Source of the DNA: Escherichia coli
GTDB lineage: Bacteria; Pseudomonadota; Gammaproteobacteria; Enterobacterales; Enterobacteriaceae
Strand: one strand, 5' to 3'
Length of the DNA stretch: 3,767 nt
NCBI RefSeq assembly: GCF_003334815.1
Contig: NZ_QOWO01000080.1
Below, piece by piece: positions 39 to 3,767 of the stretch (its first letter is position 1; every line of letters begins with the position of its first letter). Under the pieces are notes generated by a model. It saw only the letters and a list, made by a program, of their open reading frames with translations, had not been told where the DNA came from and made no database searches. A program made the position numbers and the translations under genes.

Positions 39-3000
39 GAAAAGTGAAGTTCTTTGGATTGAAGCGATTAGTACGAAGTGGCCTGTATCGTTCAAGGGGA
101 TGGTCAATTTCGTTCCACAGGTAATCTCCAGTGAGCGAGATATGACCCCATGGTAGTGGTGATACACTGGACAAGAGCTCTTCCGGTATAATGATCCCCT
201 GGTTGCGAATGTAATCAACAGCCCGACTGAGATAGACCGTGTTCCACAGAATTATTGCATTAACAACAAGGTTGAGGCCCGATGCCCTGTGAGCCATTGT
301 CTCGGCAGCCCTGTTCCGGAATTCGCCCAGTTGGTGAAGAAAAATAGCGCGGGCAAGTGCATGGCGGCTTTCGCCTTTGTTGAGGATTGCGTGTGATCTG
401 CGACGTAACCGAGTGTCAAGCAACCAGTCACAGATAAAAATTGAGCGTTCAATACGTCCCATTTCACGCAGGGCCAGATTGAGCCTGTTTTGTCTCGGAG
501 ATGCTGCCAGCTTTTTCAGTATTACCGATGGTGGTACCAGACCAGCGCCGATCGAGGCCTTAAGCCGCAGAACTTCATCCCAGTGCTGTTCTATTACTTC
601 CATTTTGGCCTTTCCGGCGATCAGGGCATCAAGTGGTTTATATTCCTCTGAGGGTGAAATAACGTACAACCTGCGACTGCCGAGGTTGCGAATACGGGGT
701 ATGAGTCTGTAACCAAAAGAGTGAAACATTGAAAATGTTGTTTCAGTCGCACCGGCTGTATCGGTGGCATGCTCATGAATTACCACAGAACTTTCGTTAT
801 GAAGTAAGCCGTCAAGTACGTAGGGAGCCTCGCTTTCAGAGGCCTGAATCATTCTGGAAAAAAAGGATGCAAAACGGTTCGATAAAAAACCATAAATCGA
901 CGCGCCAGGTCGTTTGCCGTATTTGGCGTTATATTCGAGGCTGGCTTCTCCTCGTCCACCCGCAGGAAAAAACTGCCCGTCCGAGGATGACACATGCCCA
1001 TCCCCCCATATAGCAGCAAAAGGATGTTCCTGTTGCGCATCGACCAGAACTGATGTGGCAGACGCATAGGTTTCAGTGCGTAAATGACGATCCATCATTA
1101 CCATCATCTGGTGAATGGTGACACCCCGGGAACTCTGCGCCATCCGTTCTGCTCCCGCATTCGTCGCATCGGCAAGGATCGCAGCCATAAGTGCAGCTTC
1201 ATCTTCCGCCTGTTCCCCGGTGCGATAATGGGTGAAACAATCAAGAAAACTGGTCCAGCTATGAACTTCTGCCAGCAAACTGGTAATTCTGATGCGTGGT
1301 ACCAGCATGTAGAGTTTACGGCTGAGAGCCTTAATTTTGTCGCTCTCTTCTTCGCGAATCGGAGACACAGACAACCCTCTGCTGGAAAGTTCTGCATCGG
1401 GTATGGCATTCTCCGAAGCAGCTTTTGCCAGCGCTTTCAGTTTTGCGTTGAGTGTGGTGGTTCGCTCAGCCCGCCATTCAGCAAAGTTGTCCGGAATGGC
1501 AAGTCCCAGCCGGGATTCTGCCCGCATCTGCCCGAAAACATGGTGAGGAAGAAGGTAGTCCTCAAAACTACGCCAGGCCCGACTACCATCAACCCATATG
1601 TCACCTGTTTTCAGGCGTTCCCGCAAATGAACGAATACGGCGACTTCCCACGCCTGCAGATCGGTATTTTCTCCATGGATGACACGACGTCGCCATTTAT
1701 GGGACATAAAATCGAGCGGAATTTGTTTGGGTAATTTTCGGCCATGATAGAACGCCTGCAAATACCCAATCGCCAACAAAACGCTATCATCCGGGCGAAA
1801 AGCTCTGAAAGAAAAAGCGCTGAAAATGAGTCGTCCAAGCTTACGTAATGATTTTTGTCGTCCGATAAGTTCATCCAGTTCAGAACAGTGATGGGAAGAT
1901 GCCACCGAAGCTGCAGCCTCCATACTGGCAATCAAACCTTCCCAGCCGAGTGATGCTGTTATTACAGATTCAATATCAGTATTACCGTCACGTGCTGCCA
2001 GGAGAGCCCGTCCCAGCTTAATATGATCCTGAGCTACGACTTCAAGTACTTCAGCGGCTTTCAGACGACGCTCTTTCTGGCTTATCTCTGCTCTGCGCCT
2101 CGTGCTGCCAATCAATTTGCAGAACATATCAATTGCCAGATCTGTAATTGCTGCCTGCTTTTCAATAACAAAGGCTACCAGCGTGGCATGACGGCGTTCG
2201 GATGCCATTCGTTGTATTTCACGCGCATGTAAAACGCGAGAATCCCGGGCAATAATACCGTAACGGTTTACATGAATCCGTTTACGTTGCTCATCGGAGA
2301 TTGCCGCTGTTCGTAATACCTCCAGCCTGGCAATTAACCCCTTAAGATTCTTGAGTTTCACGCCTTCCGGCGCTTCAGCTATCCAGCCTAAAATGCTCTT
2401 TTCTCCGACTCGTTCGGTAAGCAACTGCTCGAGAGCGCTAATGGATGAAGGTTTCAGATCCCTGATGAGTTCCCGATAAGAAAGGCGACGGGCAGCCGCC
2501 CGGCCCGCCATTGCCAGACGGATGAGTTGTGCCGGAGCAGGGGCAAGTAACTTCTGGTCCTTCAGCTTATTGATAACTGCTCTGGTGATCGGCAGTCCTT
2601 TTTCGGTGGTTGCTGCTTCGCGTGTAGCCGCGATAATGAGCATTCTGTAATCGCTACTCCGGACGGAACGAAGCTCCAAAGCCGAAACTATTTCGCGGGC
2701 ATGTTCCCGGCGGGTTTCCTCACGTTGTGCGTAAAGTGTAAAAACAGCAGGGTCAATATCCAGTTGTTCCGCAACAACGGTGATAACAGCCTCCGGGGGA
2801 ATCTCTCCTGCACGCAGTGTACGACCGAGATCACGGACAAGTGCAAGCTGAATGGCAAAACCCAGACGGTTATGAGATCGACGATGAGTTCTGGCGAATG
2901 CAATATCCTCGCAGGAGAGCGAAAACCGGGGAAGTGCATCCTCATAAAGTTCAGGTAATCCAAAAAGCGTATCGTACGATTTAGCGTCGAGAAATGACAT
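34..3000 (-). CDS. tnpA: Tn3-family DDE transposase TnpA, 988 aa
   Basis: A single uninterrupted 2967-nt ORF ending inside the terminal IR. The N-terminus carries the NRLGFAIQL motif typical of Tn3-family TnpA. Candidate DDE triad: D674 (SSSDGQ, nt 979-981), D747 (HEHATDTAG, nt 760-762), E877 (NKGES, nt 370-372), with spacing 73/130 aa close to what I recall for Tn4430 TnpA. The ATG at 3000-2998 overlaps the tnpR 3' end. Confidence 0.95.
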   Translation of the reverse strand: MSFLDAKSYDTLFGLPELYEDALPRFSLSCEDIAFARTHRRSHNRLGFAIQLALVRDLGRTLRAGEIPPEAVITVVAEQLDIDPAVFTLYAQREETRREHAREIVSALELRSVRSSDYRMLIIAATREAATTEKGLPITRAVINKLKDQKLLAPAPAQLIRLAMAGRAAARRLSYRELIRDLKPSSISALEQLLTERVGEKSILGWIAEAPEGVKLKNLKGLIARLEVLRTAAISDEQRKRIHVNRYGIIARDSRVLHAREIQRMASERRHATLVAFVIEKQAAITDLAIDMFCKLIGSTRRRAEISQKERRLKAAEVLEVVAQDHIKLGRALLAARDGNTDIESVITASLGWEGLIASMEAAASVASSHHCSELDELIGRQKSLRKLGRLIFSAFSFRAFRPDDSVLLAIGYLQAFYHGRKLPKQIPLDFMSHKWRRRVIHGENTDLQAWEVAVFVHLRERLKTGDIWVDGSRAWRSFEDYLLPHHVFGQMRAESRLGLAIPDNFAEWRAERTTTLNAKLKALAKAASENAIPDAELSSRGLSVSPIREEESDKIKALSRKLYMLVPRIRITSLLAEVHSWTSFLDCFTHYRTGEQAEDEAALMAAILADATNAGAERMAQSSRGVTIHQMMVMMDRHLRTETYASATSVLVDAQQEHPFAAIWGDGHVSSSDGQFFPAGGRGEASLEYNAKYGKRPGASIYGFLSNRFASFFSRMIQASESEAPYVLDGLLHNESSVVIHEHATDTAGATETTFSMFHSFGYRLIPRIRNLGSRRLYVISPSEEYKPLDALIAGKAKMEVIEQHWDEVLRLKASIGAGLVPPSVILKKLAASPRQNRLNLALREMGRIERSIFICDWLLDTRLRRRSHAILNKGESRHALARAIFLHQLGEFRNRAAETMAHRASGLNLVVNAIILWNTVYLSRAVDYIRNQGIIIPEELLSSVSPLPWGHISLTGDYLWNEIDHPLERYRPLRTNRFNPKNFTFP

Positions 3001-3604
3001 TGCTCTGATCCGTTGTCAGATTACGCCCCCCAGGTCCGGCCCAGCCAATTCGTCGTAGAGTATCGGTGAGCGTTGAGCGTGGCACACTGAATGCGCGACA
3101 TACTGACGCTTTACTGGCACCTCCTTCCAGAGCTGCGAGGATTTGATCAACCTTTTCAGCATCTATCGCCGGTGGCCTTCCGCCTTTTCTCCCCCGCCGG
3201 AGAGCAGCAGCCAGACCAGCATTAACGCGTTCTGTGATAAGTGTTCTTTCGTACTCCGCGAGCGTGCCAAAAAGGTTAAAGAGGAACGAGCCGTGTGGCG
3301 TTGTTGTATCAATAGATTCAGTCAATGATCGGAAAGCAATACCACGAATTTTCAGGTCTTCAATAATTCGGAGCAAATGTGAGAGTGAACGACCAAGTCG
3401 ATCCAGTTTCCAGACTATCAGTACATCACCTTCGCGAAGTTCAGCGAGACAGGACTTAAGTCCCGGGCGATTATCACGAGCACCTGAAGCATGATCCTGA
3501 TGTAAATGCCGGGGATCCACTCCAGCAGCAATCAACGCATCACGCTGCAAAGAAACTGACTGACGTTCATCATTGCTTGATACCCGCATATAACCAATCA
3601 ACAT
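2981..3604 (-). CDS. tnpR: Serine recombinase (transposon resolvase TnpR) of the Gin/Hin/Pin invertase-like type, 207 aa from the ATG at 3604. The ORF track extends to a TTG at 3613, which is probably an overcall.
   Basis: The N-terminus MLIGYMRVSSND...LQRDAL closely matches Gin (MLIGYVRVSTNDQ...LQRNAL), placing the catalytic Ser at residue 9 (nt 3580-3578). Conserved blocks VWKLDRLGRS, FRSLTESIDTT and ERV-AGLAAA-RGR-GGRP are present, followed by a C-terminal HTH (RSTLTDTLRR). An AAGG Shine-Dalgarno sits about 10 nt upstream of the ATG at 3604. The stop is TAA at 2983-2981. Confidence 0.9.
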   Translation of the reverse strand: MLIGYMRVSSNDERQSVSLQRDALIAAGVDPRHLHQDHASGARDNRPGLKSCLAELREGDVLIVWKLDRLGRSLSHLLRIIEDLKIRGIAFRSLTESIDTTTPHGSFLFNLFGTLAEYERTLITERVNAGLAAALRRGRKGGRPPAIDAEKVDQILAALEGGASKASVCRAFSVPRSTLTDTLRRIGWAGPGGRNLTTDQSNVISRR

Positions 3605-3750
3605 GTACGACAAACCTTAAAATTGAAGTTTCCGTACAGTTTCTCATTCCGACAGGGTTTGTCACGCAAAAAATCACAGATTTATGGATTCAATTTTCTT
3701 CAACTGCAGGACCTGACGGAAAACAAGTGATTTCCGTCAGGGAGAAATCG
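3605..3750. promoter_or_regulatory. Putative res (resolution) site with embedded tnpR promoter/operator
   Basis: A ~146-bp non-coding region lies between the tnpR start and the right IR, where res sits in Tn21-type elements. It contains a perfect dyad at 3713-3740 and repeated TTCCG(N)CAG half-site-like motifs at 3630-3638 and 3649-3657. No clear sigma70 -35/-10 pair could be assigned. Confidence 0.55.
3713..3740. repeat. Perfect 28-bp dyad CTGACGGAAA-acaagtga-TTTCCGTCAG; candidate res subsite I (crossover site)
   Basis: 10-bp perfect inverted arms flank an 8-bp spacer. The 28-bp length equals a typical serine-resolvase site I. It lies at the tnpR-distal end of the res region, where site I sits in Tn21-type res. 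Confidence 0.5.
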
Positions 3751-3767
3751 CTTAGCGGGTGTTATCG
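3751..3767. repeat. Terminal inverted repeat (res-proximal end), truncated by the window; the inner 17 bp are visible
   Basis: The reverse complement of 3751-3767 is CGATAACACCCGCTAAG, against IR positions 22-38 CGATAACACACGCTAAG (16/17 identical). Orientation and position are right for the opposite transposon end. Confidence 0.8.

Follow-up and report, generated by a model that had tools for sequence, protein, structure and literature searches.

Positions 3605-3741 of the window (the whole 3767-bp stretch of Escherichia coli DNA analysed here) very probably constitute the res of a Tn3-family transposon of 3788 bp, in which a dyad at the end distal to tnpR would be the crossover site I; we put the probability of this reading at about 85%. 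A res is an ordinary and expected feature of Tn3-family elements, and this one is not a new kind of system. The region has several of the properties by which such a site is recognised: it lies beside tnpR with the crossover subsite at its distal end, this subsite has a 12-2-12 structure, the spacing between subsites is fixed and helically phased, and the adjacent gene codes for a small serine recombinase. The initial annotation had proposed a multi-subsite res with the dyad as site I, and this proposal is supported by the spacing kept in about 70 relatives, by the conservation of both dyad arms, by natural hybrids and by collinearity with Tn5501. The coordinates of all features are collected in Table 1.

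The element and its genes

The window represents the first part (the left 99%) of the element. Complete copies found on plasmids are 99.8-99.9% identical to it, and their right inverted repeat (IR) runs 21 bases past the window end. Its 38-bp terminal IRs, its 5-bp target duplication and its Tn3-type DDE transposase are those of a Tn3-family transposon, and the duplications TTTTA, AACAT and TATCT flank three independent insertions (complete copies L001, L002 and L004). Given this anatomy of IRs, tnpR and tnpA, the element consists of res-tnpR-tnpA between two 38-bp IRs, without passenger genes. TnpR harbors a Resolvase domain (Pfam PF00239, E 7.5e-43) followed by an HTH_7 domain (PF02796, E 3.5e-5), as in small serine recombinases. 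The solved structure closest to it is that of the Gin invertase, with E 6e-50; gamma-delta resolvase follows with E 5e-26, and Sin is only distantly similar (E about 1e-7 to 1e-6). The end of tnpR and the start of tnpA overlap by 20 bp (2981-3000), which suggests that both genes belong to a single operon and are possibly translationally coupled.

The element or fragments of it were matched in 373 PLSDB records and in 363 of the 5426 complete E. coli genomes, at up to nine places per genome, and many of its plasmid hosts belong to Escherichia, Salmonella and Klebsiella. The existing annotation consists of just a "Tn3 family transposase" and a "recombinase family protein", with no res feature. 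No published name was found for the element, and the NCBIfam and cluster names available for TnpA and TnpR are generic only. An identity with Tn5403 was considered and rejected: Tn5403 in p271A has divergent tnpA/tnpR, and its TnpR and TnpA are 33% and 35% identical, respectively, to those of the window.

Base 3745, located between site I and the right IR (IRR), is an A in the window and in the plasmid relic L097 (GGGAGAAATCG) and a G in copies L001-L004 (GGGAGGAATCG); it is the sole difference from most plasmid copies within the stretch compared. One copy, L003 (NZ_CP012683.1), has no matching 5-bp target duplication, being flanked by ATACTC on the left and AACAAC on the right, and an IS26 is present about 240 bp to its right; a later rearrangement of this copy is suggested.

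Table 1. Features of the transposon and of its predicted res site in the window
Feature	Position	Strand or direction	Evidence and remarks
IRL, left terminal inverted repeat	1-38		Bases 22-38 pair with 3751-3767; full 38-bp IRs in L001, L002 and L004
tnpA, Tn3-family transposase, 988 aa	34-3000	-	ORF; NCBIfam NF033527 transpos_Tn3, 922 bits (cut-off 500)
tnpR, small serine recombinase, 207 aa, ATG at 3604	2981-3604	-	Pfam domains; RefSeq annotates the same protein
Site III, accessory subsite by tnpR, GTACGACAAACC - 9 bp - AAGTTTCCGTAC	3605-3637		Inverted half-sites A and B
Half-site A	3605-3616	Points right	Family-mean score 8.4
Half-site B	3626-3637	Points left	Family-mean score 0.7
Weak candidate tnpR promoter: -35 GTGACA (3665-3660), 16-nt spacer, TG-n-GAAACT (-10, 3643-3638)	3638-3665	-	Relaxed custom scan
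Second accessory block, candidate site II	3643-3667	-	Half-sites C and A' head-to-tail; conservation profile; overlaps Tn5501 predicted RII
Half-site C	3643-3654	Points left	Family-mean score -4.3
Half-site A'	3656-3667	Points left	Family-mean score 5.8
Spacer, accessory block to site I, unconserved	3668-3713		Information about 0; length constant apart from insertions of about 10, 29 or 32 bp
Site I, predicted crossover subsite, TGACGGAAAACA AG TGATTTCCGTCA, 12-2-12	3714-3739		11/12 positions symmetric; PWM; homology to Tn5501 predicted RI
Predicted crossover dinucleotide AG	3726-3727		On the symmetry axis; information content 0, both arms conserved
IRR, inner 17 bp	3751-3767		Pairs with 22-38; other 21 bp beyond the window

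The predicted crossover dyad

The perfect 10-8-10 dyad reported in the initial annotation is present exactly at 3713-3740 (CTGACGGAAA-acaagtga-TTTCCGTCAG), and it extends with one mismatch to a 14-2-14 arrangement at 3712-3741 (CCTGACGGAAAACA AG TGATTTCCGTCAGG). From comparison with relatives, its functional register appears best read as 12-2-12 around A3726-G3727. It is the single dyad of this type in the window: its arms score 19.6 and 18.4 with a half-site position weight matrix (PWM), and the next best half-site scores 9.6. When the window was resampled 300 times with a first-order Markov model, 8 of the resamples contained a perfect inverted repeat of 10 nt or more with a loop no longer than 10. 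Between the tnpR ATG and the start of the dyad, 110 nt upstream, lies the accessory block, making the putative crossover subsite the one farthest from the gene. On its other side it does lie immediately inside the right IR, as had been observed, since IRR begins 11 nt beyond the 12-bp right arm. A crossover is expected at the central AG, where a cleavage with a 2-nt stagger would take place by analogy with the serine recombinase family.

Conservation among relatives

Relatives were gathered from plasmids and from one genome per species, the latter set giving 80 loci whose TnpR is 61-88% identical to that of the window and which span Alpha-, Beta-, Gamma- and Epsilonproteobacteria, plus some MAGs of other phyla. 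Of the 72 loci with a recognisable site, 66 have their best 12-2-12 dyad starting 108-111 nt upstream of the tnpR ATG, and the consensus of this dyad among relatives is TGTCGGAAAACA-NN-TGTTTTCCGACA. The six exceptional loci have offsets of 120-121, 139 or 142 nt and none in between, amounting to few independent indel events; they correspond to about one or three helical turns inserted in the spacers, with the accessory motifs otherwise in place.

The information profile of 71 distinct sequences is high in the accessory blocks (3605-3616, 3629-3634 and 3645-3663), close to 0 at 3675-3714, high again in both dyad arms, and 0 at 3726-3727. Within the arms, positions C4, G5, A8, A9, C11 and A12 are essentially invariant and are kept by each arm separately. 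Across 55 distinct sites, the two arms are complementary in only 38% of cases at position 10, which is A or T, and in 44-47% at positions 1-3. An A/T-indifferent position beside an A-tract would be consistent with minor-groove reading by the conserved GGRPP arm that TnpR shares with Gin. The perfect symmetry of the dyad had been regarded as unusual, which it is not in this family: 11-13 of 12-13 positions are symmetric in the enteric and Acetobacter relatives, and 8-9 of 12 in many others.

The central dinucleotide takes ten values in the 55 distinct sites, mostly non-palindromic (TC 14, TG 10, CT 8, CC 5, AG 4, GG 4, GA 4, AC 3, CA 2 and AT 1). The central CT of L005 is the reverse complement of the AG of the window, so the polarity of the dinucleotide relative to tnpR is not fixed.

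The dyad of L012 and L040 is followed by passenger genes, without an IR, and the distance of about 110 nt to tnpR is kept; annotated genes are also present beyond tnpR in L011, L014 and L016. Since passenger genes can lie beyond the dyad with the tnpR spacing maintained, the dyad belongs to the tnpR module rather than to the transposon end. Regarding the two genes, the TnpR and TnpA of L014 (with an ISMpo10-family TnpA) are 74% and 38% identical to those of the window, and both genes are 78-83% identical in Rhizobiales relatives, L007, L011, L012, L014 and L100 being among the loci compared. The sequence comparison implies that tnpR-res modules have been swapped between Tn3-family transposase lineages.

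Putative accessory sites and a candidate tnpR promoter

Two TTCCG(N)CAG motifs had been proposed as accessory sites nearer tnpR. The motifs are real, with four copies of TTCCG(N1-2)CAG in the window, all within 3630-3740, for 0.24 expected and none of 200 shuffles reaching four; the coordinates given for the second one and the spacing between the two have to be corrected. The first does start at 3630, but reads TTCCGTACAG (3630-3639), with two Ns, and the second is TTCCGACAG at 3647-3655, with one N, instead of 3649-3657, placing the two starts 17 bp apart rather than about 19. They do correspond to accessory half-sites, the first lying inside B and the second inside C, but these are two of four, and the strongest two had been missed, namely A (GTACGACAAACC) and its inverted copy A' at 3656-3667.

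Accessory half-site scores are family averages, for which the background is -21.9 (sd 7.2), and the four positions lie 2.4-4.2 sd over it. They are visible only in these family-averaged scores, a strict PWM made from the site I arms having detected none of them in the single window. Half-sites A and B are clearly an inverted pair of 12-9-12 geometry, whose center is 105.5 bp (about ten helical turns) from that of site I. The site III half-site reads TGTCGG... in relatives, with an outer T complementary to the A in the tnpR ATG; in these loci the outer end of the site overlaps the start codon. The Tn5501 counterpart of its inner 25 bp is the predicted RIII.

The second accessory block shows the strongest conservation of all non-coding blocks, and the information content at 3649-3663 is the highest outside the dyad. 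Its half-sites C (TGTCGGAATGAG on the minus strand) and A' (GCGTGACAAACC on the minus strand) are arranged head-to-tail, with no conserved inverted partner, and A' forms with A a perfect 8-nt inverted repeat (GACAAACC/GGTTTGTC). Two inverted partners of A' were tried, that of the RII parse of PMC7157771 and a rightward half-site at 3633, and neither is conserved. The layout of site II may be a Sin-like direct repeat or, following the parse of PMC7157771, a degenerate inverted pair.

The sole promoter-like sequence on the tnpR strand, GTGACA-16-TGaGAAACT (3665-3638), lies inside the accessory block, and a standard sigma-70 scan found no promoter. As the accessory sites cover both the tnpR start codon and this sequence, bound TnpR may also repress the tnpR-tnpA operon. 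Autoregulation of tnpR is plausible by analogy with other resolvases, if weakly founded given the negative outcome of the standard scan. A perfect 9-nt inverted repeat, AAAATTGAA / TTCAATTTT, is also present at 3619-3627 and 3689-3697, 61 nt apart, bridging site III and the spacer; L005 shows a matching double change in this repeat (AAAATTGAG / CTCAATTTT), absent in L009 and L010.

Natural hybrids and relics

Three sets of natural hybrids provide indirect evidence for strand exchange at the center of subsite I. The Ciceribacter locus L077 has the sequence of L076 as far as the end of the dyad, and from the dyad on it has that of L040; its tnpR side is of the type of the minimal element L076, and its passenger side is as in L040, from a Pseudorhizobium plasmid with MFS efflux genes. 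Because L076 and L040 are unrelated on their respective other sides, the exchange interval is the 23-bp dyad core that they share. The second set is L049 and L050, with 99% identity on the tnpR side and divergence starting 2 nt past the central TG. The third consists of the plasmid relics L097-L099, whose identity to the window is 55% on the tnpR side and 87-98% between 3720 and the end of IRR, with their last left-side mismatch at 3719. Serine-recombinase chemistry requires the same central dinucleotide in both partners, and the partners do share it in all three sets (TC, TG and AG). The breakpoints bracket the dyad center within intervals of 8-23 bp and are not pinned to the dinucleotide. 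Such hybrids are the signatures that would be expected of site-specific exchange at the dyad center.

The relics L097-L099 (around 4380-4575) are found on E. coli and Salmonella IncF/IncX1 plasmids, with no tnpR or tnpA near, and are composed of the res-like region of a different relative joined at the dyad to a window-like right arm and IRR. A decayed relic was also identified at 4501-4687 of L006 and in about 200 similar plasmid records (IncF/IncX-type), where it is about 84-86% identical to the window. It retains the first 30 bp or so of tnpR (frameshifted), the accessory sites and IRR, and has lost about 8 bp exactly at the dyad center, the crossover site being thereby removed; it is flanked by partition genes, one of the ParA family and parG.

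Comparison with known systems

For Tn5501, Tn4662a and TnTsp1 (Tn3000 subgroup), Table S2 of Lima-Mendez et al. (2020, mBio, PMC7157771) lists predicted res subsites, their RI being gCCTGTCGGAAAACatTTGTTTTTCGACA. The Tn5501.3 sequence was taken from pAKD4, where it was found via its published RII+RIII sequence; no exact Tn5501-type site I was present among the loci of relatives collected earlier. The site I of Tn5501 (CCTGTCGGAAAACATTTGTTTTTCGACA) matches that of the window (CCTGACGGAAAACAAGTGATTTCCGTCAGG), which shows the site I of the Tn5501/Tn4662a type (TGTCGGAAAACA-NN-TGTTTTYCGACA) together with its spacing to the tnpR-proximal subsite. From the tnpR ATG to site I, Tn5501.3 and the window align without net indel, so that the region is collinear with the predicted res of a related Tn3-family element, and the order site I, accessory sites, tnpR is common to both. 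In the window, the counterparts of the RI, RII and RIII predicted for the Tn5501 group are the dyad, 3645-3680 and 3612-3636, respectively. The TnpR of Tn5501.3 is 66% identical to that of the window over 193 aa, whereas its TnpA is just 25% identical, over the C-terminal half only, and the transposase of the window is not of the Tn3000 subgroup. With TnpR and res homologous and TnpA diverged, the resolution module is related to that of Tn5501 and the transposase comes from another lineage. Beyond site I, Tn5501 carries a toxin-antitoxin pair, whereas the element of the window has its IR directly.

The alignment also suggests that the symmetry axis of the Tn5501 site I lies on TT/AA and not on the "at" marked in PMC7157771, and that the RII parse of this study takes the strongest half-site of the second block (gtgcggaaaa) for spacer. 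The head-to-tail organization of the second accessory block disagrees with that parse.

ISXc5 (TnXc5) has an invertase-like enzyme and yet is reported to be a true resolvase system (Liu et al. 1998, cited in PMC7157771); its res, as summarized in PMC7157771, has three subsites defined by footprinting, with site III by tnpR. According to the same summary, the ISXc5 site I has a 2-bp center flanked by AAAAC-N (GTTCAATAAAACG at CGTTTTTATGAAC), like that of the window, but its outer half-site is GTTCAAT against TGACGG/TGTCGG here, its center is a palindromic AT, and its tnpR/tnpA are divergent. The resolvases of the ISXc5 group are moreover about 310 aa long with a C-terminal extension (309 aa in the example of Tn5563), against 207 aa here.

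The three-subsite res of Tn3 and gamma-delta is the paradigm, and the region resembles it in its length of roughly 120-140 bp, in its place upstream of tnpR, and in having a distal crossover site and accessory sites over the tnpR regulatory region; the outer TGTC of the half-sites is present in most relatives of the element. Helical phasing matters in the Tn3/gamma-delta res (PMC12217951), and the spacing data obtained here are phased too. Differences are that TnpR is nearer to Gin, that the center is non-palindromic and variable, that the second block is apparently head-to-tail, and that the spacer between site I and the accessory sites is about 46 bp against about 22 bp in Tn3/gamma-delta. 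Because of this longer spacer, a host bending protein may be needed.

The hix and gix sites, of 26 bp and 12-2-12 structure with an A-tract and then C-N beside a non-palindromic center, resemble the predicted site I of the window. The catalytic domain and GGRPP arm of TnpR are highly similar to those of Gin/Hin in the TnpR-Gin alignment. Unlike in the Hin and Gin systems, each element has a single site, the accessory sites are not a Fis enhancer, and the context is a transposon. The apparent head-to-tail half-sites and the long unconserved spacer resemble the res of Sin and beta recombinases, which combines site I and a direct-repeat site II with a host bending protein; the inverted accessory site at 3605-3637 is extra here. 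A literature search found no experimental study of a res of this clade.

Alternative explanations for the dyad

The dyad could serve only as a TnpR operator, repressing tnpR/tnpA or read-through from outside, with the crossover occurring elsewhere, for example at 3605-3637. This region is likewise an inverted half-site pair, and in Tn3 and gamma-delta the resolvase sites usually serve as operators too. However, the breakpoints of three independent hybrid sets all lie in the distal dyad and none in 3605-3637. The invariant inner CA and 2-bp gap of the crossover sites of PMC7157771 are also found in the distal dyad only, and according to PMC7157771 every characterised co-linear res of the Tn3 family has its crossover at the subsite most distant from tnpR, which makes a purely regulatory role very unlikely. 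Even less probable is a function as a nucleic-acid hairpin, either a terminator shielding the element against transcription coming from outside, or a structured element of RNA or DNA. Both strands of the dyad do fold into an 11-bp stem, with -20.6 to -22.2 kcal/mol and z-scores of -2.8 and -3.4 for the surrounding 68 nt, and both arms have changed together in L009 (CAGAC...GTCTG). On the other hand, there is no T-run, a terminator scan was negative and no Rfam match was obtained. Complementarity is low at positions 10 and 1-3, many sites have 8/12 symmetric positions and each arm retains its own consensus; arms that keep a consensus without mutual complementarity are the signature of a protein dimer site, and the A or T at position 10 is what minor-groove reading would give.

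Its location 11 nt from the inner end of IRR, also seen in the minimal relatives L005, L008, L009 and L010, could indicate that the dyad belongs to the transposon end, as a subterminal site bound by the transposase or by a host factor for transposition or immunity. We give this very little credence, since the PWM finds one site only in the window, with no copy by IRL, and since L012 and L040 have passenger genes at the place of the IR with the 110 nt to tnpR unchanged. The similarity of TnpR to Gin would also fit a DNA invertase acting on the dyad as a hix/gix-like inversion site, and the 12-2-12 geometry and inner AAAAC-N are presumably shared with hix and gix. Inversion by Hin or Gin involves two sites, however, and the half-site PWM reveals no second inverted copy in the window; in addition, the gene is part of a tnpR-tnpA transposon operon with a conserved accessory block, and ISXc5 provides a precedent for a true resolvase of invertase-like sequence (Liu et al. 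1998, as cited in PMC7157771). An inversion system is hence hardly to be expected here.

Proposed resolution mechanism

With the dyad read as site I of a res, the following scheme may be proposed. Replicative transposition would fuse the donor and target replicons into a cointegrate carrying two directly repeated copies of the element. Dimers of TnpR, an enzyme nearer to DNA invertases than to Tn3/gamma-delta resolvases, would bind 3714-3739 and the accessory half-sites within 3605-3667, and the accessory sites of the two res copies would intertwine into a synaptosome that pairs both site I dimers. A 2-nt staggered cut of all four strands at A3726-G3727 would follow, subunit rotation would exchange the half-sites, and religation would leave the cointegrate resolved. 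TnpR bound to the accessory sites may in addition keep expression of its own operon in check.

It is rather doubtful that the res of this clade departs from the Tn3 paradigm as such, through a Sin-like head-to-tail second block with a possible need for host DNA bending and through a compatibility code formed by the central dinucleotide. If such a code were true, resolvase-mediated exchange would be limited to elements with the same central dinucleotide.

Significance

These results leave the understanding of Tn3-family resolution unchanged and would not surprise a specialist. Their main use lies in annotation, by providing a res feature for a common enterobacterial plasmid element. The comparative set also refines the prediction for the Tn5501 group, in which the symmetry axis and crossover dinucleotide are moved by one base and site II is re-parsed. 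The predicted crossover point at 3726-3727 would explain the hybrid junctions and the relics made of res and IR on IncF and IncX plasmids. The resolution module appears to travel between unrelated transposase lineages, and module exchange by the resolvase, as well as plasmid rearrangement, is likely to be concentrated at the dyad.
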